NCBI RefSeq assembly: GCF_011745625.1
Contig: NW_027191518.1
Location: forward strand, 1 to 44,697
Length of the DNA stretch: 44,697 nucleotides
Origin: Cladosporium halotolerans
Taxonomy: Eukaryota
Direction of reading: 5' to 3'
Shown here: positions 7,166 through 44,697 of the stretch, piece by piece
How positions within the stretch are numbered: position 1 is the stretch's first letter
Layout: each line of letters starts with the position of its first letter
Notes under the pieces: model-generated
Seen by the model: only the letters and a program-made list of their open reading frames with translations
Told to the model about the DNA's origin: nothing
Databases searched by the model: none
Position numbers and translations under genes: made by a program

Positions 7166-7226
7166 CTGGGACTTAGCCCAGGCCTATCCTAAGCCAGATC
7201 GCTTGCATATATTACTGTATGATTTA

Positions 7227-12767: not shown

Positions 12768-15700
12768 CGCCGGCGGAAAGCCAGCGGAGGGGGTCCGCCG
12801 GCCCCCCGCCGCGACGCGTCCGCCGCGCACCCCCGGCTCTCACAACACTGTGAACATAGTCCCAGACACCCAACAGCTCATTGACACAGCAGCAGCAGCA
12901 ATCCTTGAAACCTTAGACACGCCCAACGGCTCGTCGTCGTCCATCCGGACATCCCTACTTCGCGCCTTCCTCCGCGAAGCCAAAGAAACGCTCACCACCC
13001 TACAACAGGAACCATTACCACACCCCACCACGAACGCAATCCTCCGAGAGGTCCATGCAGTGCACGAAGCCGTCAAAGGCCTAGCTACACTGCCAGCCTC
13101 GCCGCCCACGTCCCCTCGCCCAACATGGGCTCAAATCGCGACCGCGCTTGCGCCGACACCGTCGAGATCCCCTACCCCCCTAACTCAGGGCCCCGAACTC
13201 ACCATCCGCATTCCTGACCCTGAGTAAAGAAAGAACGCACAAAGCCTGCCAAAAGAGGGTATTATAAAGAAGGTACAACAAGAACGGCCCGATGGGAAAG
13301 AGGTGGTAGCTGTTAGGAAACTTCCGAGTGGAGACGTCCGCCTGTTCCTGGCCGGCGAGCGGACCAAAACAGCCCTACTGCAGGATAAATCTTGGACCAC
13401 CTACCTCGGAAAATCATGCAGCATAGCAGAGAGCGTCTACAAGGTTCTGGTGCATAGTGTTCGGGTGGACTCGATTGACCCGAAACGAGCAGAAGACGTC
13501 GCGAAGCTGCAAGAGGAGAACCAAGCGCTCCACAATGGCCTCCGGATTACGAGGCTCTCCTGGCTCAGTCGCGGACATGCCCCGAGTAAAACGCGTTCTT
13601 CCCTCATAGTGGGTGTTGCGACGGAGCAAATGGCCAACTGGATTATCCAACGCGGACTCGTCAGCAACTTTGCCCTTCACCTCGCTGAGTACTACAGCCC
13701 GGAGTCGAGACTGGTACGACGCTTCAAATGTCAAGCCTACGGGCACGTCGCGCCAGTCTGTCGCGGGACAGAAGCCTGCGGGCATTGTGCGGGAAAGCAT
13801 AACACGCAAGACTGCACTACAAAGACCCAGCTCAAGTGCGCCAACTGTGGAAAGAAACACGCCGCGTGGAATCACGAATGTAGCATTCGAAGAGCAGCCA
13901 AGCCAAAAGTATGCAAGCCAGATACACGGCGCCGGCCCGCCTTCCCCAACGGTCAGACGCGATTGTCAACGTTGAGGAGGAGAGTGGTTGGACCTTGATC
14001 GAGTCAAAGAAACGCAAGCTGTCACCAGCTGCGACTGATCGGAAACGAGCCGGACCAGGCCGTCCTCCAGCAGTCCAGACACCCAACGCTCGATCTCGAC
14101 GTACCCTATCGTTTGCGAATGTTTTCCAGCCTCAAACTAGGACATTCCAGCCTCAAACTAGGACATTCAGTAGCACTTCACAGGATGCAAGATCAGGTGC
14201 CCTTGTAGACAAACCAGCAGACACAGATATGGAGGACGATGCTTGATACAACGCGAACGCTCAACATCATACAGTACAACGTGAACAAAAGCAGAAACCG
14301 CGTGATGACGTCCATGTTCAAGCCTCTGAGTCCTGAGAAGCATCACATCCTGGCCGTGTAAGAGCCATGGCGCAACCCGCAGATGCCGACGACGAGTCGG
14401 GCCCCGAACTACCATTTGATCTACCCTTTGAGCAAAGAGACGCGAGTGCGCTTCTATGTCAGCAAAGCGGTCGACCATAACAAGTGGGAGACTACAGAAC
14501 ACTCGCCGGACCTTGTGACACTCACGATCCACATAGGCGGCAGAATGCTACACATCCACAATTGCTATAATCCCCCTCCAAAGCTCCTTACCAGCCGTAA
14601 TCTTGCCACCTTACAGCTACTCCCGCAAGCGCTTGAGCGACCAGGTGAACATCTACTGGTCGGAGACTTCAATTTACGTCACCCGTCATGGGGCAGGACG
14701 TTGCTGCCAACGCAACACACTTTGGCGGACGACCTGATTGAGGCTGTGGTACAAAGCAATATGGAGCTCATCCTGCCGCAAGGTACGGTCACGTGGAGAT
14801 CGAACAATAGCATGAGCACACTAGACCTATCCTTCGCTTCCCCAGGGATAGCAGAGCAGGTGTTGCAATGCCAGCCGTGTGAGGAACTAGATTCTGACTC
14901 CGACCATATACCGATCATCACATCGATCGAGACACCAATTCCACAGCAAGCGGAGCGTCCAGCGCAACCCCAATGGCGTAAGGCGGGCTGGGAGAAGGTG
15001 CGTGGGCACTTAAAGCACCGGCTAGGAAGGCTTAACCAGGACGACTTGCTCGATCCAGGCGAACGCGACAGACGACAAGCAAACGAACATGGAAGCCCTT
15101 GACAAGAAGGTGGTCCTACTGCAGACGATTTTCCAAGACACTATCCGCGACACGATCCCCCTAGTGAAACCTTCCCGCTGGATTCGTACAGGCTGGAGCG
15201 ACGAATGTACAGAAAGCGTCAAGCGGGCCCGACGAGCCCGGCGGACGTGGATGGCTCATGGCAGTCAGGAGGCCTAGGTCAGCTATCGCCAAGCGGTAAA
15301 CGAGAAGAAACGACAGATCAAACGAGAAAGCACGCTGGGCTGGCGCGAGACCGTCCCGGATATCATTCGTGACCCAGCGGAAATGTGGCGGCTGACGAAG
15401 TGGGCACGAACAACAGCCCAAGAGCCGCCGCCGCCACCTCAGTTCCCGGCGATGAAAGACAGAGACGGCAGGCTTCATGGCTCGAGTGAGGAGAAGGCGG
15501 ACGTCCTTGCGGACCACTTCTTCCCACCACCAGTGAACGCAGACCTAGCCGACCTTGCGGGTCACGTATACCCGCCCGAGCTCTCGATGAGCCAGGAAGT
15601 CACTGCAAACGAGATCCTAAGCATCATGAAGACCATCGCGCCAGACAAAGCTCCAAGGCCGGACAAAATACCCAATCGCTTCCTTCACGAGTGCAGAGAC

Positions 15701-17455
15701 GTCCTCGCCGAGCCTCTGTCCAAGCTGTTCCAAAGCTGCCTGTAAAAATCCTATCACCCAATGCCATTCCGCCACTCTAAAACAGTGGTACTGAGAAAAC
15801 CACAAAAGGCGGCATACGATGTAGCAAAAGCATACAGGCCTATAGCACTGCTCAACACGCTCGGGAAGGTGCTCGAGAAGATCGTTGCCCGGCGTATGTC
15901 AGCGTTGGCCGAGGAACACAACCTTCTGCCTACCACGCAGATGGGCGCACGGCCAGGACGCTCGACCGGAACAGCGCTGGAAATGTCACGGAGCAGATCC
16001 CGACGGTCTGGGCAAACGACCGCACATTGGTGACGAGTATGCTGAGTCTGGACATCTCCGGCGCGTTCGACAATGTCTCGCAGACAGACTGATCAACAAC
16101 ATCCGAGACGCGAGGCTGCCGCAGTGGGTGGCAGACTACATCCGGTCCTTTTTGACCGATCAAACGACGACTCTCATGCTGGGCACCTACGAGGACAGGG
16201 TCCGTCCGACCACGTCGGGCATCCCCCAGGGCTCGACCCTGTCACCGATACTCTTCCTCTTCTTCGCCTCTACTCTCTTCCCACAACTAAACGCCGGGGC
16301 AACGACCGCGATCGGTTTCGTGGATGACACCAACATTCTCACGTTCAGCAGATCCACTGAAGCGAACTGTCGAGTTTTGGAAAGAGCAAACGAAAAGTGT
16401 ATGGCCTGGGCACGCACACACGGTGCGACATTCGCGCCGGAGAAGTACCAGCTGATGCACTTCACCCGCCGCTCGACAAAGTTCAACATGCAGGCGACCG
16501 TACGGATACCCAAGTTCCAAGACGGTCCAGTGCCAGTGATGAGAATCCTCGGCATCCACCTAGACTCGAAGCTCAAATGGGGCCCCCACGTAAACCTGAC
16601 TGCAGCAAAGTCCGCATCGCACATGGCATCAATCACCCGGATGACCAAGAGCACGTTGGGAGCCACATTCACCAAGGCCAGACAGGTCTACGCTGCCGTG
16701 GTCCGTCCAGTACTTTCTTACGGATGCCCTGTATGGTATTCCCTTGGTGACGAACGAGCCAACCTTAACCGACTGATCTATCCATTGCAGACAGTGCAGA
16801 ACAAGTGCCTCAGAACCATTACAGGCGCATACAAAACGACGAATGTCCAAGTGCTAGAACACGAAGCCAGCATTCCACCTCTGGATTTCCACCTCGAAAT
16901 GCTGGCGATCAACCATGTCCAAAGAGCAGAAGATTCCACAGGCAATCGGGCTGTGGAAGAAGCCTGTAAGGCTATCGACCGACGGGCCCAGCGCCGCTTT
17001 CGAACCAAAGGCAACATCCTAGAAGACACATGGACCGATTTCGAACAAGGACTAAATTGATACAACGGCGATCATGCCTGGCGGGGCGTGATGGGGGCAA
17101 AACAGCTACGAAGACAGAGCTCGAGGAGACTTGGAGAGCCAGGTGGACCGAGTACCAGCAGCAAACGTGTGCGGTGGTGAATGACAGCAAACTTTTGGTT
17201 GCAGCGTGTGCGACATGGACTCGAGGATTGCGGACGAAGGAGAACCTCACAAGGCCGAAAGTACAGTTGCAACACTGCTACGAACCGAACACATGCAGGA
17301 ACGATTACCTGTTTCAACGGCGCGTGCCCGGATACTCAAAGCCAGACTGCGACTGCGGCTGGCCGCGACAGACACCGAAACTCATCATTCTGTTCTGTCC
17401 TGCACACACGACAGGTCTGGCATAGATGCTAAGGGAGGCGAAGACGACCGACTAG
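12768..17455 (+). mobile_element. Tad1-clade LINE copy B (ORF1 with zinc knuckles; ORF2 APE-RT-cysteine motif), degenerate, same family as copy A
   Basis: ORF1 VRKLPSGDV, CQAYGHVAPVC, CGHCAGKH, CANCGKKH. ORF2 IIQYNV, GDFNLRH, RT with FVDD. Many stops and frameshifts. Protein closely similar to copy A. Confidence 0.93.
14123..14168 (+). repeat. 21-bp in-frame tandem duplication (FQPQTRT twice) in LINE ORF1
   Basis: TTCCAGCCTCAAACTAGGACA occurs twice in tandem. Confidence 0.9.
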
Positions 17456-17459
17456 ACAT

Positions 17460-18177
17460 TAACCCAAAGACTTGCGATCGGCGTCATTATCGTATGTGAG
17501 GTAAGCAGTGAAGGAGAGGTGACGAGCCGCAAGAGCAACCAATAAGCACATCGAAAGCGCAAAGAAATCGACTGCTGCGCAATACCTACAGCTAAAGTCG
17601 AGCCACGCAGTCACGGGCGTCCATCTACTGAGGATCGGTAAGACCCCAGAGGCACACTTCCTGGCGGTGCGGCCGCAGCAGGCAGACGGTCGCCCATCTC
17701 ATGCTGAGGGTGTCGGAAGTGGCGAGGAGAACGAGACACAATGCTGCAGAGCCTGAGGGCAAAAAAGATCAAACTCGGTGGGATGCAAGACCAGACAGAC
17801 CCGGAGATCCTGTTCGAGCAAGCTGCCACTATAGAGGCACTCCAGTTCGTTGAGAGCACGCAGCCGGGCAAAAAGCCGACAGACGACACGAACAAGTATG
17901 ACTTTAAGGATTTTGAGCGGCTCGACCGAGATGATGGCGGAGGAACAATGGGGAATAAAGTGGGTGAGGTGGGACAAGAGGCGTAACGACGAGAAGAACG
18001 TAGGAGGGCTCGGTGTTCGAAAGCTGTGGCGGTTTGTTGAAGTCGGGACAGCGAGCAAGATTATGGGACCAAAAGACGAAAGCAAGAGCACAAAACAAAG
18101 CCAGAGAAGCCGTCTAGAAGTCGGTTAGTATTTCATAAGCTCAACAGCTTTAATAAATTATTATTCAAATACAAAAA
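17460..18177 (+). mobile_element. 3' end of a different LINE (family C): C-terminal cysteine/histidine region, 3' UTR and AT-rich tail
   Basis: Translates as AAQYLQLKSSHAVTGVHLLRIG..RCGRSRQTVAHLML..CRKW..LF..ALQFVESTQPG. Ends in taataaattattattcaaatacaaaa. Confidence 0.8.
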
Positions 18178-18624
18178 TGCCAGCATACAATGTGCCCAGA
18201 AGCTCACCCTCGGCTTAGCTAATGGCCAGCATGGACAGCTCCACCTGCCTCGTTCTAGGCGGGCCATCGCATCTAGCGACCTGCAGCACCCGTGTTTGCG
18301 GGGTCATGCTTGGCAATTCTTCACCCCTTGCGACGAAGCTCAGGAGCCTTCTCGGACATATGACACTCAAAATAAAGGAGCCTTTAGACTGGAGGCAGCC
18401 TGTCTCGGTCTTGTGGGCATCGCGAGCTTAATTGCATTATCCAAAATCAACGATTCCGGCTCACGCTGTTACAGGTGGGGCCCAGTCAAAACACAGAAGG
18501 TACGCGAGGCCTGAGCGAAAAGAACCTGTCTCTTCACCACCTGTGCGAAACCTATAGCAGTTGGGTTCAATGTGCTGATAGAAGAATAGGAAATTACAGC
18601 CAGTATCTCGTGAGTCCGGCCGAG

Positions 18625-20809: not shown

Positions 20810-21746
20810 TTGTGTTGCATCCGTCTATTGTGGCTCTTGCGGCGCTGTAACACCATGTCTGCGACCATATACCTGTCCCCTAGTGCTCAGCCCGTCTCTT
20901 CTGCCGTGTCCCTCTACTCTCTGGGCGTATGGCAGTGCTTTAAAGTGATCCCACGTGTTGTTCTTGTCTCCCACTAGGATCTTTGACGTGGCAATGTGTT
21001 TGCGAGCGTCTTTCGTCGTTCACGGCAGCTTCGATGTCTCCATCGGCGTTCAGCGGTATGAGAACGATGCTCCACTCCTGCTGGGCTTCGAATTACTAGC
21101 ATGAGAGCTCTAGCGCGAATCTCCTCGGGCTTTGTCATGTGGTGAAGGGTGACTAATCCTTCACCAATGGTTCTGGGGGCGACAGTGGGCGAGGCTGTCT
21201 GTGTATCTGTAGTATTGTGTGGCACCGATGAGTAGCGTGCCGATGCCCGGTGTTCGATTCGCGTAGAGATGATCCCGTTCTGTTCGAAGGCCTGCCGGCG
21301 TGGGACGCCGCAGACGTTGGCAGGTGCTTTGATGGACCTGCTCCCGGTCCATCCGTGGCTGTGTATTGTGACTGTTGCTGAAAAGTGTCTGTGCTCAGTC
21401 GCCGCACCCGTACTGCTGGACTCTGACCGAGGCACTGTACTGCTGCTAAAGCCGAAAGACGTGTTGTTTCGTGGCTTGCTCTTGATGTTCTGCATGTGTT
21501 GTCCACTGCGTCGACGAGAGGTCCTCTGCAGATCCCGTGTCCACGGGGAGAGTCGCGCGGTGACCTGCACAGGGCATCAGGGTCTTATGTGGACGTGATT
21601 GCGGCCGCGTTACTTGGTGTTTCCTTGCTCTTTCGCACCCGCTGCGTGCTCCTTATCCAAGTTGTTGAGGTCTCCTGGCTCTGTCAACTGTTGCCAGTGA
21701 CAGGTTCGTAGCCGGCACCACGTACAGGTGGACCTCATCGCCGGCC
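20810..21746 (-). mobile_element. 5' fragment of a ribozyme-headed LINE-like element (family X, copy 1)
   Basis: Starts with an HDV-like fold. Patchy similarity to 29770-30340 over about 550 bp (GAGCAAGCCACGAA, CAACGTCTGCG, AACAGAACGG, CAGACAGCCTCG). No RT remains, so LINE identity is inferred. Confidence 0.6.
21667..21746 (-). ncRNA. HDV-like self-cleaving ribozyme (class I, copy 1)
   Basis: P1 GGCCGGC/GCCGGCU; P2 GAGGUC-C/G-A-GACCUC; P3 ACC/GGU; L3 UGUACGU; P1.1 GU/AC; P4 CUGUCA-CUG GCAA CAG-U-UGACAG; J4/2 GCCAG. Confidence 0.85.
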
Positions 21747-21785
21747 GTCACCAGTCGTACTACAGCCCTTAGATAGGTCATTACC

Positions 21786-24700
21786 GGGAAAACTTTCTTT
21801 TCGGCTTTGTCACAGACAAGGTCATTATTTATACCAATCCAGAGCACAGACTAAGCGCATTGCGTATATAATAACGTGATTTCCAACGCCTCGGCTGGCG
21901 GGAATGTTATCCCCCAGTAGAGGCGGCGGAGGGACCCCTTTGAACGACATTTCAGGGTCCGAAGCGTGCCGGGGAGCCTCCGGGCGGGTCAGAAGCCTCG
22001 CAGATTTCGGATTCTGCGAAACGGACTTCAGAGAACTGACCATGAACATTGAAATCTCTGAACTCGACTGTGTGATGGTGGAGGATGAAGAGGGCGTTGG
22101 GGGAAACCGGAGCGCGAAGTCTGGGGAAGCTGACGACCTCGCCGACGCTGCTGCGGGGTTGCCTACACCGGAGACGAGGCAGGGGACGGTGGCGGAAGAG
22201 GTACCAGGTAGTGACGAGGGCTGAGGGTAAGCCGAAGCAAGCAGCTAAGGCTGCTGTGACGGCGCTCAAGCCTGGTGTCGTCCAACCGAGCCAACAGGCC
22301 GAGGCGTCGAAGAAACGTAGGGCAGAGGACCCTTTGACGAGGTCCAGCGATGGAAGCTCCCTGGCGGACCAGATTGAAGGTGTCAAATCCCTGGTCCTCC
22401 GTTTACTCGAACAAGGGAAGAACGAGATCTGGAGGAGGAAGAGAGACTGGAGATCTGCGATCTGAGGAAGGAAGTCAAAGACCTCAAAAAAGAAGTGAGG
22501 GAGCTCAAGAAGCTGCTTCAGGCGAACAACGTCCAAGCACAAGGTCCCACTTATGCGGCGGTCGCTAGGGCGAACATGCCGATGTTAACGGTCAGGACCA
22601 CGTTTCCGCGCGATAAAACGGGTGACGTGCAACCGCAACAGAGGCTGCGTGTTGAGGATGATAAATGCTCCATCACGGTCAACACCTCCAGGGTCAAAGA
22701 CGAGAAGCCGGACTTTGTGGCAGTAAAGGCCAAGCTCTAACAGGCAATCGATGGTAGCGGCGCTGTGGGAAACGCAAAGATCACTTGCCTTCGCCAGCTT
22801 CCAGGCGAAAGAATAAACGTGGTCTTCGCTTCTGCGGCAGATGCTAAACGGGCTCGGAACCACATTGGGTGGCTTGGGACTGCGATGGCCAACGCGAGAG
22901 TGCTCAGCGAGCCATGGTACCATATCAAGTGTGACATGGTTGCTAAGAGGGCCATGTTGGACGACCAAGCACCAGATGCGAGTTTGCCATAAACAATGCC
23001 AAGGAGGGGTTGGATTTCACGGCAATGAAGGCTAGCTGGCTCAGTAAGCTAGACCCGCGTAAAGCGAATGGATCTATGGTACTCTGGCTGAAGAGCAAGG
23101 CGGCCGCCGACTGGCTCTTGCAGACGGGCCAGGCTTCGTTTGGGGGAGGTGCTTATGGTGCCTGCTGTTCGAAATATCTCCAGGACAACTCGTCTAAGGT
23201 CTGCTACAATTGTAATGCTTATGGACACACGCAGACCAACTGCGGACGCGCCACTCGTTGTGGCAACTGTTCCGGTAGCCACCAAACACGAGACTGCACT
23301 GGTACTGCTTCGCTGAAGTGTCCTGCGTGTACGGGAGCTCACACAATCAAAGATTGGTGCTGTAAACACCATCCGGCCCACAGGAAATATCTCGCTCAGC
23401 TATCGAAATAACCAGAGGCCTCACAGTCGATGAAGTCTGCTGCAGGAGTGCCATGCGACAAAGATGCGGAAATGGACCGTCCCCAGCGGTGCAAATGATC
23501 AACGAACTCAAAATACTGCAGTACAACATCGGCAGGCGCAAGCAAGTTCAGTGGAGCACGTTCAATGATCCAAATTTGCAGAGTTTCGCGGTTTTGGCTA
23601 TCCTAGAGCCACACCTCTGGGAAGACCCCGGGATAGGAGAAGCGAGGACGCACCAGCATGATCGGTAGTACGCAATGACGCCATCGAAACACAGAACAGG
23701 AGTTCGTACATGGCATTCGTTTCGAGCTATGCTGTATTTCAGCATCAGCACGCATGCCAGACAGATTCCGGTTGACAGCTTCGACATTGTCGCAGCGACT
23801 ATAAGGCTCAGAGAAAAGACTATCCTAATCATCGCGATCTATGACCCAGGAGTGGAGCGAGACGCGACTGATCGGGATGCGGCTCTTCAGGTGAAGCGGA
23901 TCAAGTCCGGGATCTGGTAGACACAACCAAAGGCGAAATAGGTGACAGCCTACACATCATCCTGTTGAAGGGTCTCAACCGTCATGATATCCTATGGGGC
24001 GGCATTGCAGTGGCAGCTCACTGTAAACGTGACGAAGGCATTCGGATAGTGAATTTTGCACAGGAATACGGTCTACAGTCGCTCCTCACACCGGGTACTA
24101 TAACGTGGGAACACCCAGCCAGCATCGCTCGTTCCACAGTCGATGTGATCATGGCATCAGAAGGCATGGTAGAGTCTCAGACGTGCTGTAAGGTGTATGA
24201 CACAGACCATGGCTCAGACCACAGGCCGATAGAGATGAGATTCGACCTTCCGGTGGATCAACCCAAGGACCGCAGACGGAGACTACAGTTCCAGAAGGCT
24301 GATGGAAGGTCATTGGGCGCGCAGTTGAGGCACGCTTACCACTCTCAGATATCCCGAGTGAAGTCACGCAAGATGAACTCGAGGAGTATGCGACGCATTC
24401 CATGCGAGTGGTCACGGAAGATATGCATGCAAGAGTTCTCAGGTCCAGACCTTCGCCCTACGTGAAAAGATGGTGGACACCAGAATTGACACAAACTACG
24501 GAGCAATATGACTGCTGCCAGAAACGCCATCACAGCTTTACGGCGCAGGGGTGAATCACCTGATGAAGCTCAACAACAGTTTTGGCTGGCGAAACGTCGC
24601 TTCTGTCGCGAGATGGAGGCTCAGAAAAAGAACCACTGGCATGCCTTCCTTGACGACCAGAACAATATCTGGAAGGCAAACTCGATCTCGAAGTTGATGT

Positions 24701-26177
24701 CCCACAGTACCAGGATCCCGGTACTCCACACTGAGAACCGCGTGGCCGAATCCGACGAGTCAAAGGCCGATGTGTTGATGGAAAGCTTCTTCCCCACTCC
24801 GCCACCACCAGAAGAAGCCTCAACAGTTCCTCAAACCGACGGAGGGGGCGAAAGTCTTTTGGATATGCTGCCGGCAGTGACGTACCAAGAGGTCGAAAGA
24901 GCGGTGATGCATCCGAATCCCAACAAAGCTCCTGGCCCGGATGAGATCCCGTTTGCCGCGTGGAGGCAATTACTACCCTTCGTCAAGGAATCGATCAGGT
25001 GGCTGTATCAAGCATCGTTGTCGCTAGGCCACGTCCCTCGGCTTTGGCGCGAGGCGAGCATAGTGGTGTTGCGTAAACCTGGAAAGAAGGACTATGGCGT
25101 TACCAGGGCATACAGACCCATCTCCTTACTATCTGCAATAAGTAAGGGGCTTGAGTCTAGCTCCAGGCTACGCTACACGCTGCAGCCGTGGAAGACGCTT
25201 CCTCAAATAGCGATTCCGCGTTCGGCTGAGGAAGCCATCAAGCGTTACAAACTTGCCATTCAGACTCAGGAAAGGCTGGTGTTCTACCCCGATGCTTCGG
25301 TACGGAATAACGTCGCTAGTGTAGCAGTGACAGTTCTGGGTTTTGAGAAGCTAGGTCGCATACCAAAACTGATATACCAGGCCACCGTAGGGTGGGAGCA
25401 CACGTGCTCCGCCACTGCCGCCGAAGTCAAGGGAATTGAGCTTGCCGTGCTTCACGCCAGAAGTGCGGGAAGACACTTCTCCACAGTAACGGACAGCCAA
25501 GAGTCGATCACGCTGGTCAACAAGAGGGGCCGCTCAGCCAAGGCAAGAGACACGGCCGGTGCGGTACTGAGAGCAATTGGTTCGTGTCTAGAGGAAGCAT
25601 TGGACTTTGACATACTCTGGGTACCCGCCCACAAAGGTATAGCTGGCAATGAAGCAGCAGATCGTGCAGCTAGACAACTGACGGAAGTGCATGGACGGCC
25701 GACAAGAGTCCCGGCATTTCGAGTGAGTGAACGACCAAAGGTCATGAGAACTGTGGAGGAGACAGTCAGGCGAGAGAGCACGGTCTCACCGTCGCACTGG
25801 GGAAGGCACACCTACAGTCTCAACGCTGCTCTGCCTGGTAAACACGTCTTGAAGTTGTATGGCATGCTTTCACGGGAAGAGGCCAGCATCCTGCGCAGGC
25901 CCGAACCGGGCATGCGCGTCTGAACTCGTACCTTCCAAGGATAAGTCGTGGAGGACGGCAAGAGCAGCTGCTGTGATGGCGGTGAGACGGTCAGCCACGC
26001 CCTATTGTGGTGTAAGCGATGGAGCCACCTACGTGAAAGGCTCATAGAAAAAGCTGGTCAGAGATGGGGAGACATTTCGTACCTCCTAGGAGGACGAAGC
26101 TCGAAAAGAGTTCCAATTAACGGCCGACTGATTGATGTTCCGGGAAAATGGAAACTAGATTGCAAGATGGTGTGGGA
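21786..26177 (+). mobile_element. LINE copy D with RNase H (Tad1/I-like), degenerate, RT core deleted
   Basis: ORF1 21904-23411 with CYNCNAYGHTQTNC, CGNCSGSH, CPACTGAH. APE ILQYNI..LNRH..VDV..GSDH. RT start KAPGPD..YRPISLL joined to RNase H FYPDAS..E..DS..WVPAHKGIAGNEAAD. C-terminal CCDG.ETVSHALLWC. Confidence 0.9.
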
Positions 26178-26289: not shown

Positions 26290-29200
26290 TCACTTGTTCC
26301 CAACCGTGCTGATGATCTGCTGTATCTTTTCCACGATCTTCTCAATTCTATACGGCTTGCTGATCACGTCATCCTGATGATCATTAGCTACAGTCGATCT
26401 CTTGTGGCAGTGAAATCGCTCTTACCATTCCTGCCGACTTCCTGTCAAAAACACAAGATAGAAAGGTCAGTGTCTGCTGGTCTGAAATCTCAAAAACAAA
26501 GCGAGCACTTACATCTCTGCTTGTTGCTCGCTTCTGACGTTAGCAGTGACCCCGAGGATAGGAATATGCTCTATCTGTCCCTGCCTTTCCAGCTCGCGTA
26601 TAGTTTTCGTAGCGGTATTCCCATCCATTATTGGCATTTCCATATCCATAAGGCAGATGTCAAAAGCATGTTTGTCACTGGAGAGCTTCGAAGCATTCAT
26701 CACAGTCGTGACAGCCTCTTTGCCATTGTTCGCCACCGTTACGTCGTAGCCTTTGTTCTCTAGCTTCCGACACACCAGTTTTTGGTTGATCACATTATCC
26801 TCAACGAGGAGAACATGAGCCCGCACCCTTGGCTTGGCTGGTAGAGTCTTCAGCGTCGTCCCCTGATAGGAGGAGCCTTCACCGTTTTCTGCTGAGGACA
26901 ATGACGCCATATCGACTCTCAGGTCCTGGCTACTCTTCCGTTCGTTCTGGGATGCGATAGAACCTTTCGTATCCTGGTTCATGCTCTCTTCTCGAACCTT
27001 TGAAGCGATCTGAGCGGTGCGCTTATACCTGTCATCTTCCTGATGATTGGTATTACGAATCATGTCCTCCGTTTTCGCTACTGGTGGATTGTCCAAGCTC
27101 CCCGGGAAGATGCTGTTGTCTATGTTTTTCGGCGCGAAATTGCCAAGCTCATTGATCTGGCCTCTTAAAGGGGCGTTGTCCAGTTCCTGCTCCTCTACCC
27201 GGCTTTCATAGCTCTGTGGCTGCCCGGTACGCTTCACTTTGAAGAAGAAGCCAAATGTACTGCCACAGCCAGCTTTAGAGCTGACACCGACCTCGCCGCC
27301 ATGGACATGACATAGCTTCCGACTGATGTTAAGGCCCAAGCCCGAGCCCCCATAAATCTCGACAGTCTTCGGCGTAGCCTGCCTACGTATGTGCTTAGGA
27401 CAAAATATACGTATCAGCACCAGGCTTCATATCCGACTTACTGCATCGTTTAGGTCAGTCCCAAGCAACACACAGGAATTAAGGAGCACCTCGCAAAACC
27501 TACCCTAAATCGCTCGAACAGCCGCTGCTGGCCTTCATCACTGATTCCGATGCCCGTGTCTTTCACTGCAACCATAATGTAAGCCGCCGCACCAGTGCCC
27601 CAGTCTCGCGTGTTGGTAGCATCCACGCGATAAGCATGATCTTCAGGACTAAAAAATACGACGTTGGGCGGGTAGCTTGTTGGACGTTGCACACTGGCAC
27701 CCACCGAAACTACCACCTTCTTCTGACCTTGGGCTCTCGCGGTGAACTTAATCGCGTTCGAGACCAGGTTTATTAATACCTGCGAAATACGGACCATATC
27801 TGCCTTGAGGGGAAGGGTAAAAATTAGCAAATTCTCGAGGCAAGGTATGATAGCAGGCATCAATAGCCATTCTCCCGTTTTGGAACTGCTGCGCATTCAG
27901 TTGGCAATAAGCAGGCCACTGTTGTGGCCCACTCATGTCTGCCAATCTATACCTCATATGTCTCGGCTCGGAAAAGACAACGAAGGAACACAGGAAATAT
28001 AAAAAGTGAAAAAGGATGTGGAGACGAGCAGGCTTACCAGGACCCAAGATACATCCAAATCGAGGTAGGATTGATCTATTCTGTAGCCAAACTCGACTTC
28101 TTGCCGACGAAACTCAGGTTGAAAGAGTTTGAGAGAGTTTGCGATTTGACGATCCGGCAAGCAGGCCTTCGGGCTCAAAGACAGCATTGAAGCGTCCAGT
28201 TTTGAGAATGACAGCACGTCATCAACAATATTTCGCTGGTGCTTTGCAATTAAATAGCACATCAGCCTCGATATCAGGTCCACGCGGTACCTGCCGACCT
28301 TACCTGGATGCAGACGTTGATAGTCTCGACAGACTCTTTGATGCTGGCAATGTCGACATTGCTCAGATCACTGATGGCATCCTCGATATCTTCGGAGCAG
28401 TGCAGCAGAGCCGATAATGGATTGCGGATTTCGTGTGATATCATATCAATGAACCTCTCCTGCTGCTCTTTGCGTTCACGAGCGTCTTTGGCGGCCTTTC
28501 GCTCCGCAAGCTCCGCACTCTTCTCGGAAGTAATGTCGACAACGCTACAGATGAAGCCTCCATATTCGCGCAAGCTCACATGCTGAAGATTGTCATCGCC
28601 AAGTGGTGTTAGGAAAAGCAATCGCCATGGATGTTGATCACCGAGCGCCCTGAACTCTGTCCGAAGCTGTTTTTGCGAGAAAAAGGCATCATGGTATATA
28701 TCCATGACTCGATTGTAGTCATCAGGATGGATACTCTGTGGCCACGATTTGAACTCCTGGTTCTCGCCGCGATGGGTAGTCAACTGGTAAAATTGCTGGT
28801 TGACAAAGACTGCTTGCGCTTTATGATCGAGAATTGCCAGGCCCGTCGGTAGCATTTCAGCAAAACGGTGAAAGAATGGATGCTCGTCGAATGAGACACC
28901 GTTGAGTGCCCGTCCCAGCTGGCTCATGTCACATTCGGTCTCTGGGTTCTTCTCTGGCATTTTCATTTCCCAAAGATCTGGTCGTGAAGGATGCTTTTCG
29001 TTTCCGCCCCGGCCATAGAGGTCGGGCTCTGGTATCATCTGTACGAGTGAGCCATCCGCACCGTGCTCTCTCGGATCTGTGTCGTCGAACAGGGGGCTGA
29101 TGAGTGTTGTATAGCGGCCTACTTCATAGCCGGAGTGATCCCGAAGAAAAGCGCGACTGTTGACCCTTTTGGGAACGCCGCCATGTAAAGAGGCAGACAA

Positions 29201-29575
29201 TGCGTTAAAGCCGTCCGCGGACAGCTTGCCACGTTGCTCTTGACCTTGGTCGTGAATTCCACTGGCCTTTCTCCATTCGCGATTCTGCAGAAGAATCATC
29301 TCCTCACCCCAAAAGACGCAGGCAGGATAAGCAAAAGACGCAACGGCTTTGGTATAGGCCTTTAGCGCCTCCGGCCACGTCCCCGGCTTCTCAAAGGGGG
29401 AATGCTCCCACGCCCGCTCATTCCCGGGTAGCAAACCCTTCAATTCACTTTCAGCACGCTCATGCAGTGATTGCTCAGCTTTAGGGTTCATGATTGGTGG
29501 TCGTTGATGACTTCTTCTTGCTTGATTGGTTTGCACTGACCTTGCGCCCGTCCGTCGAAATACTCGAGGACTCAC
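26290..29575 (-). CDS. Hybrid sensor histidine kinase (PAS-HisKA-HATPase_c-REC), multi-exon; start uncertain (in-frame ATG at 29491 or an upstream exon)
   Basis: PAS IHPDD; H-box MISHEIRNPLS; N-box NLVSNAIKFT; G1 DTGIGI; YGGSGLGLNIS; receiver VLLVEDN..DICLMDMEMPIMDG..TAN..DDVISKPY. Five GT-AG introns. Confidence 0.9.
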
Positions 29576-29769
29576 ATGACGGGGTTAGCTGACATTTTGA
29601 CAAAGTGGTGTTGGGAAAGCAATCCGCCGGATTGATGCTATGAATCGTCATCTTCCCGGCCCGGGCCGTATCACATGACCCGGGCATTCTCTATCCGACA
29701 ACAAAGTGACCCTGGCGAACATATTCCAACCACTGTCGAGAAATGAAGAAGCTTCTGAGGACAAGGCTC

Positions 29770-29850
29770 GGCCGGCGACGAGGCCCACGTGTACGTGGTG
29801 CTGACTACGAACCTGTCACTGCTCAGCAGCTGGGGGAGCCAAGAGGCCTC
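29770..29850 (+). ncRNA. HDV-like ribozyme (class I, copy 2; partly decayed)
   Basis: P1 GGCCGGC/GCUGACU; P2 GAGGCC-C/G-A-GGCCUC; P3 ACG/GGU; L3 UGUACGU; P1.1 GU/AC; J4/2 GCCAA. Confidence 0.8.
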
Positions 29851-30340
29851 AAGAGAAAAGCAGGAAGACAAGGCGAGCACAAAAGAGCAAGGAAAGCGCA
29901 AACATACCACCACCAGAACCATCCGCTTGGAATCTGCAACAGACTCTGTAGGCCATTACGTCTTCCTCCGCGTCGAACGAATTGTAGAGCCACTGTTGCA
30001 GTCACGGCGGATACAGATTGCATAATTCCACGAGCAAGCCACGAACACGATGCGCAGATCCAAGTCGACGATAACGGCCGCAGCCTGGTCTCGATATAGC
30101 AACCCGGACACGATTACCGAGCCCAGGCAACCCAAAATACCACAGTCAACGTCCAGAATAAAGTCCTCGATGGATCAACCGCCCGCCCATCACACGTACC
30201 CGACAACGTCTGCGACGTCCCGCCTCAACAAGACCTCAAACAGAACGGCATCATCTCCTGCACGAATTGGACACCAGACACACAACACTAGAGTCACCAG
30301 ACAGCCTCGTCCACTGTCGGCTCCCTCCAAGCCCCACAGG
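29770..30340 (+). mobile_element. 5' fragment of family X, copy 2
   Basis: Homologous to 21170-21746 (minus), including an aligned ATG-GAY start and QRLRRP codons with a synonymous change. Confidence 0.6.
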
Positions 30341-30692
30341 GCGTTCGTGCTGGATGTCTTGTCCGGTGTGACTCTTTTCATCTCATGAGCCTATGTATTG
30401 GTCTTCCTGCGAGAGCCGGTGGGCTCGTCGCGTTCTTGTGCATTTCCTGCGCCTTCTTCCGACTCTTGCTCATTTGGGATGTCGAGTCGACCTTGTCGAT
30501 GCTGGTGGCGGGGGTTCGTGTTGCCTGCAGGCGCGGTGCGCGCGCAGGCCTTGTCGTGTCGTGCAGAGTTTCCTGGCGGCTGGACGGCGAAGTGGGCGGC
30601 CATGTCGACCATGTCGGGCGTTCTCGATGGGTTGGGGTCATCGAGTGATGACTGGGTTGCGAGACTGCCACGTGGACTCATCGCTCTTCTGT

Positions 30693-30765
30693 AGCGCACT
30701 TCATTTCACTGCAAAGCAGCTACTCACACCAGACACCACGTGAAGGTGTGCGCTCTGCCTCCGGC
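30693..30765 (-). ncRNA. HDV-like ribozyme (class II, E-loop P4) with the catalytic C replaced by U
   Basis: P1 GCCGGA/UCUGGU; P2 AGCGCAC/GUGCGCU; P3 ACC/GGU; L3 UUCACGU; P4 AGUA-G-CUGC UUU GCAG-U-GAA; J4/2 A-U-GAA. Confidence 0.8.
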
Positions 30766-36365: not shown

Positions 36366-38148
36366 TGGGTTTCTTTCACTCTTGTCTTTGCAGCCCTCTT
36401 TTCTTCTGCCGCCTTCTTCCGGGCCGCGGATGCCCTCGCTCTTTCTGCACGCTTTTCCCGAACCTCCTCTTCCTTCCGAGCTTTCGCGCGGGCTCTCCCA
36501 CGAGCTCTGGGCTCTCTTTCTCGCGATGGCTGCTCCTTCTCGCGTGCTCTACCCTCCTGGATGTCTCGAGCCTTCTGGACTCAGTCGGGCTCAGGATGAG
36601 CGCGCCTGAGCCTTCGGAGGCGTCTCAGATCTTTGACAACCTTCTTCTGTCTTTTCCTCCTCTTCTTTTCATGCCTAAGGGCGGCATCAAGCTGCTTGGT
36701 ACGCAGTTCAGAGAGCGTCAGTCTAGCAGAAAGACCGAGGGCGGTGTCGCCGAGCTTTCGAAGCGTATTTTGCGTTTTCTTGTCACTTCTGGCCGCGGTA
36801 GCGTTCAGAACAGTCCTGAGCTTCTTCGGCTTCGAAGGGGAGCTGAAAACGCTACCTGCACTATCGCTAGATGGCCCCTCAGCTCGTTGAGACGGTCGCG
36901 ATTCGTCTCCTGCTTTAGAGAACACGTCGAGAAGGGATTGAAGGGCATGAGACCCGTCTTTTACCACGCGGAGAAGATGTCCTTCTTCGTGAAAGCGCTC
37001 TCGAAGGCTGGCCAAAAGAGCGAAAAGAAATCTCGCTTGCTGATCGATGTGCGCCCCTCCGACTGTCTAACGAGGTCGTCGAGTGCTTGGCTGTAATAAT
37101 GAGCCAAGGGTGCAAACACGCTCACATCCAGAGGCTGCAATCTATGCGTTGAGTGAGGTGGAAATACGACAACCAAAATTCTGTGGTTCTCACACCAGTT
37201 CAGAAACTTCATGTTGAGATGGGAGCCGTGACCGCCAACAACAAGGAGCCGCCAGGACCTCTTCGCTTTGGCAGCAGTCTCCTTCTCGAATAGTCCAGTC
37301 AACCAGTTGTAACCAAGCTCGTCGCTTGTCCATCCGTTCTGTGATGATGTAAAGTAGCAAGCTTGCACGGAAAGCTCGAATCCATCGAGCCAAGTGTCTT
37401 GCACACTGCCGGAAACGGCTTTGTAGATCAGAGTTGGCGGTAATCTTGTGCCATCTGCACATATAGTCGCAACGAGCGTGATCCACTCACGGCCCCCATC
37501 TTGGCCAGCCCCTACCAGTTTGCCATGCTTTTACGAGTCTTTCGCGAAGACCCTCTGGGTCTTTTGAAGCCTACCGAGGAGAAAGCCTTTCTCGTCCATG
37601 TTGTACATATTCTCGGCAGTATGTAGCATTCATCTACTTTCTCGCCTAGACTTACGAAGTATTGCTTATAGCTAGCCCATGAATCAGCCTTATGACGTGA
37701 CAGGTCGATGGCGCTGAGGAATCTGGCGTCAAGCTGGTCCTTGTGCCTGGCGACGAAACGAGACGACCAGTTCTTTGAAGGCTTCCTGCCACATAGTTCC
37801 GAGGCAATATTCGCGACAATTCTGGGGGTTGGTGGGAAGCATCGCTCGCAGAGCTTCTTGATGTGCTTTACGAGCTCTTTCTCTTGTGCGTTGTTCAGTA
37901 ACCTTTTAGATTCGTGATGTTGGGCCAAATCTGTGGTCATCAGGCGGAAGCGCCTGCTGAGCGTTGATCTGTTTACACCTTAAATTCTTGCTACCATAGA
38001 TATATTTGGCGATTCGCATAAACTCAGTTCCGCAAGCGCCGCGTCCATGGCAGCAAAGTTCGTGGAGATATCGCATGGTAAAGAGAGCGTGTCATGACCG
38101 CGTCGCGCGTGCATGCAGTGTGTCTGTGCACGCAGTGGGGAAAGCTTC
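36366..38148 (-). mobile_element. pogo/Fot1-like transposon 2, degenerate and 3'-truncated
   Basis: Terminus TA-GAAGCTTTCCCCAC at 38150-38135, ATG at 38048. LLNNAQEKELVKHI..KNWSSRFV; YNMDEKGF; NGWTSDE..LLVVGGHGSH..LQPLDV. Confidence 0.88.
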
Positions 38149-38354
38149 TACACCATGGGGCTTGTCCGCGGGTCCCAAGGTCGCATGTGAGCGAGGGTTA
38201 CACAAATTGCTTGCTGCGTTCGAAAACATTTGGGATTCGCGAAGCAAGAGAGCGCCGTGGTGGAAAGATCACGCCGTTCGAGCAATATATACGCTGACAC
38301 TCGTCGCTTTTACAGCCGTTGCTTCACGCCATCGTCTTCCTAGTCCAGCTCATC

Positions 38355-41396: not shown

Positions 41397-43916
41397 ATGG
41401 CGGCAACGACGACGGCAGCCTTAGAAGCAGCCATCGAACGACGAGCTGAAGTAGTGCTCTTGCAAGGACCTTATGCTGGAAAGAAGCACACGATCAGCCA
41501 CCCGGGCTACCAGTTACGCTGGCCGGAGTGCGAGAAGCAAGACATACGGGTGGCTCTAACCATTCGCGTTGACATGCTCGATATGTATGTCTTTGAATAA
41601 AGGACTGACCTGATAGACCACCCCTGCGTGCAGTGTATGGACGTCTGGGAAACTCAGGGAAGGCGGAAGGTGCGCAAGACGAGGGTCACCAACATCTCCA
41701 ACAGAGCAAGAGTGGAGGGGGGCGGGCACACAATCAACGGCATCGACTTTAGGGAGTTGATCCAAGGAAGGACGATTCTGGCGGGCGACTTCAACGCTAG
41801 GAGTCCTGTGCGTAACGCACGGATGGAAGGCCGCTACGACGCTGCGTCACCGAAGGGCTCATCGAAGACCATGCGCTGATTGCGGACAATGACTTTCAAC
41901 CGACAAGATGTGCGAAAGAGCAGATCGGTCATCGACCTGACGCTGAGCACCCCGAGTGTCGGAACGCTGCGAACGTGGAAGATCGATGAAGACCTCGCCA
42001 CACCATCGGATCACACGGTGATGGCCTTCTCGCGGGATCGGCTGTACTCTCATTCAGGCGCACGTGAGGCGAGATAGATGTTAAGCTGGGATATCGATAA
42101 GCTCCCCGCAGATGAAGAGCGACTGAAGCAAGCGCAAGACCATTGGAAGGAGCTCTCTGGTAGGAGACAATCCATCTCGACTGAGCCATGTAAAGTGGAC
42201 CTCAAAGAAGAGGCAAAGTGGATACAGTACAACCTCACGTCGGTTCTCGACAGACACGCGACTCTGAAACCAATACATCCCCGATCGAAGCGGTGGTGGA
42301 CCGACGAGATCAAGCAGGAAAGGAAGAGACAGTGTGCATCTAAGCGGGCCCTCCGGTCGAAGGAACTGCCCTTCGAAGAATACCGTCAAATCAGAAATGG
42401 ATATTATTGCTGCATTCGGCGCGCAAAGAGAGAGGCGGGGATACGCTTCCTCGAAGGAGTGCTACCGACCAAAGAAGAAGCGCAAACTACAGCTGTCAGC
42501 GATCGATGCTGGAATGCCCTCCGATACACCAAGCCCCGGACAACTTCGTACACTCCCGCAATCAAGATTATCGGGGATGATGGGCAGCCAGAAGGGCTTG
42601 CGGCGTCAGCGGAGGAGAAGAAGACGTCTTCGTGAATCAAGCGTTTCCGCGCCAAGAGGAAACTGACGACGACATCTCCATTCCGGACACGAGAGCTCAA
42701 GTCGGAGCAAGAGAAGTGCAAGAAGCGCTCTTCGCACAGTCGGTCAAGAAGGCACCAGGCATTGACAAGCTCGGCTGTCGTGCGCTGAGACTGCTGTGGC
42801 TGTGGGACGACACTAGAGTGGTGGTGCTTGTCAGAGGGTGCATCACATCAGGATACCACCCACTCTGCTGGAAGGCTGCCAAGGGCATACTGCTGCGCAA
42901 GCACTACAAGCCGACATACACCGTCGCCAAAGCCTACCGCATCATCAGCCTGTTGAGTTGCTTAGGTAAGGTCGTCGAGAAAGTGGCAGCCACATGGATC
43001 GCATGCTATTGCGAAACGAGCAGGGTGACCCACCAGGGTCGGTTTGGCTGTCGTCACAGCAGGAGCACGTCTGAGGCGGTCGCAAAACTAGTGTCTCCCG
43101 TGGAAGGCGCTTGGGAGCGGAAGCCGATGGTTCTTACGCTGCTGCTGAATGTCAAGGGGGCCTTCGATCGCGTGAACAAGCAACGGCTGCTCAAGCGTAT
43201 GATTGAGGTTGGCATCGCGGGCAACATTGTCCGCTGGGTCGGCTCGTTCCTGTCTGACAGGCGGGCGAAGCTAGTCATCGACTGCAGGGCCGGGGGAACG
43301 CACGACATACAGGCGGGTCTGCCGCAAGGTTCGCCCCCGTCACCGGTGCTGCTCATCCTGTCAGTAAGCGCCATGTTTCCGTACCTCGAAGAAAGGCATC
43401 CTGATAATGAATCGTTATCTTTCGTGGACGACATGGGCTTGGTGTTAAGGTGCGGCGACTTGAACGAAGGTGCGTGAGAGCTCGAAAACGTCGCTCGACA
43501 TGCAGTCGAATGGGGAGACAACAATCAAGTCGAATTTGAGATCAGCAAGACGGAAGTCTTGGTTTTCAGCAAGCAGCGCAAAGTGCTACAAGCAAGCAGG
43601 CAGGCGACGGTCCAGATTGGAGAACAGGAGTTTTCTTTCAAACATGGAGCAACAAAGTGGCTAGGCTCCTGGCTAGACTCGAAACTGTCCTTCAAGACAC
43701 ACTTCGAGAAAAGACTAGCTAGCGCCAAAGGAGCTCTACAGAGAGCCAAGGGTCTCGGCGGCAGTCGCGGTGGCTTGCCTATGCGTCTGATGCGACGGGT
43801 CGTTGTAGCGGCCGTGAACTCGGTCGCGCTTTATGAAGCTGAGGTGTGGTGGAGAGGACAGCAAGATCGCGCCAAGCGTCTGCAGCAACTGCTGCTGAAC
43901 AGTCAAGCGAGGATCG
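41397..43916 (+). mobile_element. LINE copy E, ORF2 (APE plus RT), degenerate and 3'-truncated; decayed ORF1-like sequence probably lies upstream from about 40220
   Basis: VVLLQGP, AGDFNA, SVIDLTL, SDH; RT KKAPGID, AYRIISLL, NVKGAFD, GLPQGSP, SFVDD, KWLG.WLDSKL. Confidence 0.9.
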
Positions 43917-44152
43917 TCAAGCTGTTCAGCTTATGACATGCTTAGCCTTTTTCTAAGACGACTTCTCTTGCTTCCATCTATGTTCTCGCGTTGGATCCTT
44001 TACCGTACAATCCTGCTCGCTGCCCCGAATTCGACAAGCCGCCACAGCTTTTGGGCTCTCGGCCCTCCTACGTTTCTGTCATCACTGCGCCTCATCCCTC
44101 ACCTCATTCATGGTCATACTCCAGTGGCATCTCATTGTCACCCCAATCAAGT
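43917..44152 (-). mobile_element. Inverted 3' UTR of LINE family C
   Basis: Reverse complement aligns with 17930-18150, ending in CATAAGCT(G/C)AACAGCTT. Confidence 0.8.
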
Positions 44153-44431
44153 CAGGCTGTTCATCGGACAGACAGACAGGGTTTCAGAGAATGTCTGGTC
44201 TGCTTACCTAAGAACCGGCGTCTTGTCTGTCTGTCTGAGAAATGGCGATGATTTGTCTGTCTGTCTGCGTAGTATGCCAAGACATCTTTCCGAATATGTC
44301 CCGTAAGTGCAATCAACCCTCCACGCAGAGAGGCGAAGAACTTGTGTGGTCGTCAGCAAATCCTGATTCCCGCCAGGGTCGTTTCCCCCATTGGGTGGTC
44401 AGTCTGTCGTGCATCTGCAAGCCTGAACAGC
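44153..44431. mobile_element. MITE-like element related to 6767-7082
   Basis: Starts CAGGCTGTTCATCGGACAGAC, has GTCT/AGAC repeats, and a partial right end TGAACAGC. Confidence 0.55.
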
Positions 44432-44437
44432 GGGCGT

Positions 44438-44509
44438 GCCGGACGAGAGCGCACACCTTCACGTGATGTCTGGTGTGAGTAGCTGCTATGCAGTGAAACC
44501 AAGTGCGCT
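44438..44509 (+). ncRNA. HDV-like ribozyme (class II, E-loop P4) with the catalytic C retained
   Basis: P1 GCCGGAC/GUCUGGU; P2 AGCGCAC/GUGCGCU; P3 ACC/GAU (one mismatch); L3 UUCACGU; P4 AGUA-G-CUGC UAU GCAG-U-GAA; J4/2 A-C-CAA. Confidence 0.85.
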
Positions 44510-44510
44510 A

Positions 44511-44697
44511 GAAGCTTTCCCCACCTCAAGCACGTCCACACCTCAGGCACGCTTGACGCGGCACCAACGCGTCCTCTTCTCTACGTGATTTCTCAACAAC
44601 CGCAACTCAATGGACATAGCGCTTGCAGAATTAGGGTCTTCTGATGGTCTGAAGATATCTGACGTCGCAAGAAAACACGGGCTTACCAGATCCGCGC
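44511..44697 (+). mobile_element. Left end of a pogo-like transposon related to 36366-38148, running off the window
   Basis: TA-GAAGCTTTCCCCAC is identical to the pogo 2 terminus. ATG at 44610, MDIALAEL..DVARKHGLTRS. Confidence 0.8.

Follow-up and report, generated by a model that had tools for sequence, protein, structure and literature searches.

A relic loop-E HDV-like ribozyme at the head of an apparently non-coding retroposon in a filamentous fungus

HDV-like ribozymes with an altered P4 have already been described in fungi. Li and Breaker (BMC Genomics 2017, PMC5640933) reported 230 HDV ribozyme variants from 26 fungal species, in which a loop E replaces part of P4 and an extra nucleotide, mostly C, is present between P2 and P3. 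The base pair at the cleavage site of these variants is typically C-G, and is given as R-Y in the text and as Y-R in Table S1 (PMC5640933). Bimolecular constructs of the P. chrysogenum and A. niger variants cleave at the base of P1, yielding products of the expected masses through 2'-O attack (PMC5640933), and four predicted variants from A. nidulans are stated to cleave in a 2026 preprint. The fungal loop-E HDV variant is already known, as is the fact that HDV-like ribozymes free non-LTR elements from co-transcripts. The abstract, section 7 and Table S1 of the 2017 paper contain no description of the fungal ribozymes as the heads of retroposons.

Here we describe a 72-nt ribozyme of this type, referred to as copy A (44438-44509, plus strand), and its surroundings. 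The window, i.e. the whole stretch of DNA that was analysed, comprises 44,697 nucleotides, and its Fungal_trans and OrsD domains, together with a 74-nt intron, are fungal marks. With a probability of about 0.8, we regard these 72 nt as a decayed self-cleaving module from the 5' terminus of a filamentous-fungus retroposon that depends on a LINE and is apparently non-coding. The sequence-only reading of the window had labelled copy A "class II"; it is no new class, given the published loop-E fungal variant with its 230 members and its two cleavage assays. The reading's own caution that the class may be partly known was well placed, such variants being in print (PMC5640933).

Copy A was recognised by direct reading, by a search with model R2 (see below), and by the covarying helices of its relatives. 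The letters and coordinates given for it in the sequence-only reading are exact, and the individual elements proposed there were recovered as well. P1 is a helix of 7 bp with a wobble (44438-44444/44468-44474), whose first pair is G44438·U44474, and P2 is a perfect helix of 7 bp (44448-44454/44503-44509). At the base of P4 lies the loop E, formed by AGUA (44478-44481) opposite GAA (44495-44497), and the C at the catalytic position is C44499 in J4/2, 3 nt ahead of the 3' strand of P2, from which it is separated by CAA. By direct reading, J1/2 corresponds to 44445-44447, P3 to 44455-44457/44465-44467, the L3 heptamer to 44458-44464, and P4 to 44482-44494, where the loop E adjoins a G·U pair and a 4-bp stem. 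The strands follow one another in the order P1-P2-P3-P3'-P1'-P4-P4'-P2', which is that of a nested double pseudoknot. C44454, located between P2 and P3, can pair with G44503; in one sub-type of the relatives, the equivalent of this pair is a C-G followed by a one-base bulge. The single helix defect of copy A is A44466, which stands opposite C44456, as had also been noticed from the letters alone.

Compared to its close kin, copy A shows three changes. Its J1/2 is shorter by one base, a 3-base J1/2 being also found among the relatives; a C-to-U change in P1, common to the sister copy, keeps the pairing (G44441·U44471); and at 44466 a G has become A, which disrupts P3 at its middle pair. The sister copy exists as had been claimed, on the minus strand (30765-30693), with P3 intact and a G at the position of A44466, and is supported by a match to a short core pattern, by a 65-nt arm at 94% identity and by model R2 at 48.2 bits. 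The loop E is present likewise in the sister copy, which carries a U at 30703 instead of the catalytic C and a G-G mismatch as the last pair of P1. Since the two window copies are 92% identical, no covariation can be seen between those two.

Relatives were collected from metagenomes using a pattern in which L3, the letters of the loop E and two pairs of P3 were fixed and P1, P2, J4/2, the stem of P4 and the first pair of P3 could vary. The scan returned 97 loci, 77 of them unique, and 70 of these with enough flank on both sides. The best P1 contains 7 of 7 pairs in 59 of the 70 relatives, 6 in 8, and 3 to 5 in the other 3. The 59 perfect helices represent 36 distinct P1 sequences, and when upstream flanks are combined with the P1 strand of a different hit, 500 permutations yield a mean of only 4.24 perfect helices and never more than 10. 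In 56 of the 70, P2 is perfect over 5 bp or more, against 4.44 after permutation (maximum 10). The letter behind UGAAA, which was not forced by the pattern and corresponds to C44499, is a C in 68 of the 70, and J4/2 mostly reads C-N-R-A. Two of the relatives, L015 and L047, sit within tRNA/tmRNA arrays.

The pairs were followed individually in an alignment (A2) of 57 rows, consisting of the two window copies and 55 unique matches, out of 76, with at least 6 pairs in P1 and a perfect P2; matches cut by contig ends and non-folding ones, such as the L005 and L070 groups, were left out. In this alignment, 92.6% of the paired cells hold a pair, compared to 60.8% after shuffling, where none of 500 shuffles reaches the observed value, and to 34-44% after displacing the partner by 1-3 columns. 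P1 is paired in 99.2% of its cells, with two-sided changes at 7 of 7 pairs, and P4 in 96.7%, with two-sided changes at 4 of 5. P2 also changes on both sides at 7 of 7 pairs and is paired in 80.5% of its cells, a value lowered by the misalignment, by MAFFT, of the sub-type with the one-base bulge. Two-sided changes occur in 1 of the 3 pairs of P3, the other two being fixed by the search; the first, unforced pair is AU in 28 rows and GC in 24. The closing pair of P1, with a purine at +1 in copy A, is GU in 43 of the 57 rows, GC in 13 and CG in 1. The proposed P1.1 of copy A would consist of the single pair C44460-G44475, a second pair being impossible (U opposite U). The first of these positions is C in 57 of 57 rows, with C or U allowed by the search, and the second was fixed by it; since both are invariant, covariation cannot show in this pair.

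These figures call for two qualifications. The cell counts of A2 overstate the number of independent events, since its rows are mutually related and pre-selected, and the unfiltered counts over the 70 relatives are the fairer figures. Moreover, because the pattern was taken from a window copy, it is circular to find L3, the loop E and two P3 pairs conserved; independence from the search pattern is limited to P1, P2, the C, the first pair of P3 and the greater part of P4. The sequence-only reading had stated that homologues failing to conserve the helices would refute it. They do keep them, all four helices covary, and the HDV-like fold of 44438-44509 is real.

Copy A stands out from chance. 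A 29-nt core pattern matches the window twice, against 0 matches in 100 shuffles. The pattern of the metagenome search finds nothing in a viral collection, and only four matches in a collection of prokaryote genomes (596 billion bases, as stated for the collection). Three of these four lack both P1 and P2 and illustrate what chance matches look like, and the sole one that folds, L099, is located on a 1.4-kb MAG contig. A model (R2) for which 46 relatives were used, the window copies and their close kin being excluded, matches copy A at 44438-44510 with 55.9 bits (E about 1e-12) and the sister copy at 30692-30765. Besides these two copies, models R1 and R2, with filters off, find no further loop-E match in the window. 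The nested minimum-free-energy fold of the 72 nt reaches -18.4 kcal/mol (z +1.0), which 171 of 200 shuffles equal or better; this energy is uninformative, given that a double pseudoknot lies beyond that method.

The Rfam HDV-family models, to which the sequence-only reading had looked for recognition of the ribozyme, give 0 matches in the window at gathering score. The only related match in E-value mode is a weak one to RF02682 (HDV-F-prausnitzii), which begins at exactly 44438 and scores 18.5 bits (E 0.38), the gathering score being 44. The Rfam CPEB3 model does not match the window at E up to 10, and four intact close relatives (L007, L029, L053 and L063) remain unmatched by the HDV-family models up to an E of 0.1. 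Rfam 15 contains no model that finds the published loop-E variant, so genome annotations will miss this type of ribozyme.

The ribozyme forms the first 72-73 nt of a multi-copy, A-tailed, apparently non-coding retroposon of 0.75-1.2 kb. The window copies have near-identical counterparts at about 20 metagenome loci. Counting 13 distinct upstream flanks from the metagenomes and 2 from the window, homology begins in all 15 at G+1, the G of the predicted cleavage site, and the base ahead of G+1 is T in 8, C in 4, A in 3 and never G. Downstream, homology between copies extends for 260-1190 nt, and copies remain alike for 750-1200 nt up to an A-rich tail, which is present in 4 of 4 complete copies. 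In two of these, L053 (12 nt) and L029 (11 nt, with one mismatch), upstream flank letters recur behind the tail as target-site duplications, and none were seen in the other two, L025 and L063, the latter having an internal duplication of ~130 nt. The 3' end of copy A itself falls outside the window. The four complete copies have no conserved long ORF in common.

The same boundaries can be observed around the window copies. By blastn, the sister retroposon copy (30339-30765, minus strand) comprises the first ~430 nt of the element, ribozyme and body, is truncated at about 30339, and shows 78-90% identity to the metagenome copies between position 1 and 260-440. In run X1, which covers the stretch best (share 0.80), the element body follows behind 44510 at seven contig ends, and seven contig ends before 44445 have dissimilar upstream letters. 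The window also contains a 5'-truncated copy (6477-7226, plus strand) that retains only the 3' part in two blocks, 6477-6763 and 7074-7209, with 79-85% identity to element positions of about 490-880. Sequence alignment further revealed a fragment of the retroposon/LINE 3' end (43917-44071, minus strand), 370 nt upstream of copy A and in the opposite orientation; the surroundings of copy A are made up of transposon fragments. Conserved sequence downstream and varied sequence upstream of a boundary at the cleavage site, the A-rich tail, the duplications and the 5' truncation together mark a non-LTR retroposon with a ribozyme-generated 5' end, as known from R2 and its SIDEs and from L1Tc and NARTc. 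Carriage at the front of a retroposon would account for the "widely variable gene associations" of the fungal variants.

A candidate partner for this retroposon is encoded in the same window, where Pfam domains outline a LINE with an endonuclease (14383-15102), a reverse transcriptase (RT; 15885-17060) and an end near 18180. Its 3' end (17985-18185, plus strand) was defined by the Pfam domains upstream, by blastn at 67-73% identity and by an alignment (A4). The last ~190 nt of the ribozyme-headed elements align end-to-end with this 3' end, the terminal hairpin and the A-rich tail being common to both. It is from this shared 3' end alone that we infer the dependence on a LINE. No RT-coding element that begins with the ribozyme was found in the window or in the metagenome loci, and none of the 20 ORFs beside ribozymes in 16 metagenome loci contains an RT domain. 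On the 5' side of the window LINE, there is no HDV-family match in 11600-13400, and models R1 and R2 find no ribozyme at the 5' side of the window LINEs.

The sequence-only reading had also placed the start of a pogo element at the TA on the last base of the ribozyme, which is correct: the boundary is T44509/A44510, and similarity to a second copy begins exactly there. T44509, part of the pogo target TA (44509-44510), is at the same time the position where the 3' strand of P2 ends. This target is defined by the second pogo copy and by the contigs of runs X1, X9 and X13, which depart from the window just behind 44510 and continue as retroposon body. What follows in the window (44511-44697, plus strand, up to the window edge) is the 5' end of a pogo/Tc5-type DNA transposon, 68% identical over 123 nt to 38150-38028; its ORF starts at 44610, ~100 nt past the end of the ribozyme, and 29 codons of it are visible. 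The second copy of this family (36961-38150, minus strand) is degenerate, with HTH_Tnp_Tc5 and DDE_1 ORFs. From 38150 it has the same terminal 16 letters and ~120 nt of similarity behind them, nothing alike in front and no ribozyme ahead, and its far end was not found within 3 mismatches. A different pogo element (7227-9069), TA-flanked and with 24-nt terminal inverted repeats, cuts the 3' tip of the truncated retroposon copy at 6477-7226. The idea of an orphan ribozyme tied to a transposase gene does not hold, as the other ribozyme copies run into their own retroposon body and the pogo is a later, accidental insertion. Since the locus of the relatives lacks the pogo, this insertion is late, an accident at the level of the strain or species, without a functional tie to the transposase gene.

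The locus of copy A, without the pogo, is also represented in contigs from runs of relatives. A contig of 1251 nt from run X9 contains 44121-44302, skips the 74-nt GT..AG intron that lies just upstream of copy A (44303-44376, plus strand, GTAAGT...CAG), and resumes with 44377-44510 and the element body. A contig from run X13 begins with 21 letters, presumably the end of a template-switch adaptor, followed by 44346-44510 and the element body. The spliced structure of the former and the adaptor-like start of the latter suggest that these contigs are RNA-derived, in which case an RNA spanning 44437/44438 exists at this locus. Both contigs have A at 44466 and lack the pogo, and each has a further helix change, a C>T at 44439 in the case of X9 and a C>T at 44457 in that of X13. 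Repeat-induced point mutation is a conceivable source of the G-to-A and C-to-T changes. The evidence comprises 23 listed runs, all in the form of contigs, from which the cleaved fraction is not readable; their "RNA?" labels are guesses, and parts of the window without contigs of X9, X10 and X13 carry no meaning.

Copy A is a relic, with a mismatch in P3 and a body severed by the pogo. Disruptions of P3 strongly lower the activity of HDV ribozymes. The sister copy and all close kin have a G at the position of A44466, and the contigs of the two relatives, which bridge the cleavage site, suggest that copy A cuts poorly or not at all. We consider that poor or absent cleavage is probably the present state of this copy.

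The following mechanism would account for these features. Intact copies would be transcribed within a read-through RNA started from whatever is upstream, in which the first 73 nt may fold into P1, P2, P3, a single-pair P1.1 and a short P4 on the loop E. The invariant C of J4/2, C44499 in copy A, would then serve a cut just 5' of G+1. These folding and cutting steps are modelled on the HDV family and on the published assays of the fungal variants. With a cut at this point, the freed RNA starts at G+1. The RT of the LINE would recognise the common 3' end and copy the freed RNA by target-primed reverse transcription, giving rise to new copies that start at G+1, carry an A-rich tail and are flanked by target-site duplications. 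Intact copies of the sub-family would, on these grounds, cleave co-transcriptionally and have their freed RNA copied by the LINE RT. In copy A itself, a G-to-A change has broken the middle pair of P3, and a pogo landing on the TA has separated the ribozyme from its body.

Other explanations for copy A have to be weighed against this one, starting with the possibility that there is no ribozyme to explain. A chance look-alike, or a repeat of a young transposon without selected RNA structure, would fit a nested fold no better than that of shuffles, a lack of Rfam matches at gathering score, and two window copies too similar to covary. However, pairing is preserved in distant relatives across 36 P1 sequences and numerous different P2 and P4 sequences, chance matches in prokaryotes lack P1 and P2 in three of four cases, and published members of the class cleave (PMC5640933); as far as computation can do so, these observations refute the look-alike reading, to which we attach practically no likelihood. 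Hardly any more credit can be given to a cooperation between the ribozyme and the pogo behind it, by which, for example, the 5' end of the transposase mRNA would be trimmed. Their adjacency, with the pogo beginning at the last base of the ribozyme, is all that speaks for it, but what precedes the second pogo copy is unrelated, ribozyme copies elsewhere are followed by retroposon body, and the locus of the relatives does without the pogo.

The splicing of the locus raises a further alternative, namely that the host has co-opted the ribozyme within a spliced transcript, as with CPEB3 in mammals, and has kept it for a function of its own. The presence of 44121-44510, with its intron at 44303-44376, in the runs of other organisms, and the removal of this intron in X9, are in line with such a role, which we nevertheless judge very unlikely: the element is multi-copy with varied flanks, the conserved locus has the P3 mismatch and the additional C>T changes at 44439 (X9) and 44457 (X13), the pogo splits it in the window genome, and transposon fragments lie all around. 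That copy A is still active, with the C·A of P3 tolerated (e.g. as a protonated wobble) and the RNA cut at 44437/44438 upon transcription, is less remote than these readings but in our view still rather improbable. Its remaining features correspond to the consensus (7 bp in P1 and in P2, L3, the loop E and C44499), a 3-nt J1/2 is frequent in the relatives, and the locus is transcribed in relatives. On the other hand, the mismatch is found in the middle of a 3-bp helix beside the active site, it departs from the G of the sister copy and of all close kin, and the same A is present in the contigs of two runs that bridge the cleavage site. A decayed head of a LINE-dependent retroposon therefore remains the reading that we prefer for copy A.

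For the biology of ribozymes as such, this represents little gain, and the retroposon link would be a modest addition if it is unpublished. In the openly accessible full-text literature that was searched, which does not extend to subscription journals or to Repbase/Dfam, no paper came up that connects the loop-E variants of fungi with a retroposon. As one window copy has a broken P3 and the other lacks the catalytic C, counts from motif searches overstate the number of active ribozymes, and many genomic ribozyme copies are mutated relics. Somewhat short of even odds, we put forward a more general proposal: the fungal loop-E variants would not be scattered regulatory RNAs but the heads of an undescribed SINE-like retroposon family that borrows the 3' end of a fungal LINE, the G+1 boundaries would be evidence of the cleavage site in vivo, and the loop-E type would extend beyond fungi, to AT-rich eukaryote-like metagenome contigs and to tRNA/tmRNA arrays beside telA.

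Among the systems described so far, the theta ribozymes, neighbours of phage tRNAs (Nat Commun 2024, PMC10879173), resemble L015 and L047 in the location of these within tRNA/tmRNA arrays. They have been described as minimal, whereas the relatives at these two loci have a P4 on the loop E, a comparison that concerns those loci and not copy A. The HDV-F-prausnitzii model (RF02682) aligns with P1, P3 and L3 of copy A from 44438 onwards; however, it is bacterial, and the part with P4 and J4/2 is left without alignment, which is reflected in the 18.5 bits against 44. The CPEB3 ribozyme of mammals is a compact HDV-like ribozyme with a weakened P1.1 of one pair and the same L3 heptamer as copy A. 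Contrary to copy A, it is a single-copy intronic element of the host and has no loop E.

The fungal loop-E variants are the closest match, and copy A is the same kind of ribozyme (PMC5640933). They have in common the fungal host, the nested pseudoknot of HDV, a P4 seated on a loop E, the many copies and the "widely variable gene associations". C44454 of copy A may correspond to the extra C that the variants have between P2 and P3, although it is pairable with G44503. Copy A may also differ from the variants as described in its first P1 pair, a G·U with a C-G as the second. As for the element behind the ribozyme, its closest parallels, on the basis of their available descriptions, are L1Tc/NARTc of Trypanosoma cruzi and R2/SIDE. 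There, an HDV-like ribozyme likewise makes up the first ~70-80 nt and frees the element from co-transcripts, short non-coding derivatives use the RT of the full element, and target-site duplications are present. These systems belong to another host kingdom, their descriptions include no loop E, and R2 is site-specific, which the fungal element is not. For the fungal ribozyme, the analysis found no full-length coding element with this head, only a LINE with a shared 3' end.

The window is packed with nested transposon remnants. At 7227-9069 on the plus strand lies a pogo/Tc5 element that looks complete and belongs to a different family from the pogo that splits copy A (the main loop-E HDV-like ribozyme, 44438-44509, plus strand). 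It has 24-nt terminal inverted repeats flanked on both sides by TA and encodes HTH_psq, HTH_Tnp_Tc5 and DDE_1 domains; its insertion site is the 3' tip of the truncated copy of the retroposon. Similarity and Pfam searches also delimit two LINE copies of one family in inverted orientation, at 3556-6467 (minus) and 14551-17458 (plus), which are 74-84% alike across about 2.9 kb. The plus strand carries, in addition, a third RT fragment (42078-43477) and, at 24508-25923, an ORF for RNase H.

A plus-strand transcript probably passes through old transposon sequence into copy A. Upstream of the ribozyme, a canonical 74-nt intron (44303-44376, plus strand) is spliced in a contig from X9, a sequencing run of a relative. 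In X13, a second such run, an adaptor-like loose end at 44346, within the same intron, may mark where a transcript begins. At 26509-29575 (minus), PAS, HisKA, HATPase_c and Response_reg domains occur in ORFs that are likely exons of a single hybrid histidine kinase gene, located about 1.1 kb downstream of the element headed by the sister ribozyme and on the same strand.

The window also holds two copies, at 21667-21748 (minus) and 29769-29821 (plus), of a second HDV-like candidate that differs from the loop-E type, probably the 'class I' of the sequence-only reading. It has a 7-bp P1, a 3-bp P3, a 7-nt L3 and an ordinary P4 hairpin, loop E being absent, and scores 19.6-20.2 bits with R1 and R2, the covariance models of the loop-E type, and 22 bits (E 0.3) with the Rfam HDV_ribozyme model. 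The copies share 91% likeness over 53 nt and, because about 550 nt 3' of both are likewise similar to each other, the candidate looks from its sequence like the head of a repeat, as are the loop-E copies. The element of the plus-strand copy extends to about 30319, the place at which the sister loop-E element, on the minus strand, is cut short (30339).

Among the metagenome loci matching the pattern of L3, two P3 pairs and loop E, an AT-rich group (such as L002, L009, L014, L021, L031, L037, L038, L045, L062, L072 and L079, together with L004, L012, L020 and L044) forms loop-E HDV-like folds whose P1, P2 and P4 sequences differ considerably. Its contigs, with 27-42% G+C and low ORF cover, differ in appearance from contigs of the window's fungus, so the loop-E type may, judging by these sequences, extend past the fungi in which it was described. 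The few ORFs tested beside these folds contained no RT domain. In the prokaryote genome collection the pattern matched four times, and L099 alone of these has P1 and P2; it may be eukaryotic contamination, since it comes from a contig of just 1.4 kb in a binned genome, a MAG labelled 'bacterium'.

Two further loop-E folds, L015 (2484-2566, plus) and L047 (2503-2576, minus), have a perfect 7-bp P1 and a P2 of 5-7 bp, and are embedded in long arrays of tRNA genes on contigs of 53-480 kb; a tmRNA gene of the same strand precedes them by some 230-430 nt, and telA lies 1.2-1.5 kb downstream. Their upstream flank is common to L016, L058, L061 and L078, where a scripted helix search found no P2. The loop-E pattern had no matches in the viral collection. 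In their tRNA-array setting both folds recall the theta ribozymes of phages, which are described as minimal, but they differ in carrying P4 on a loop E.
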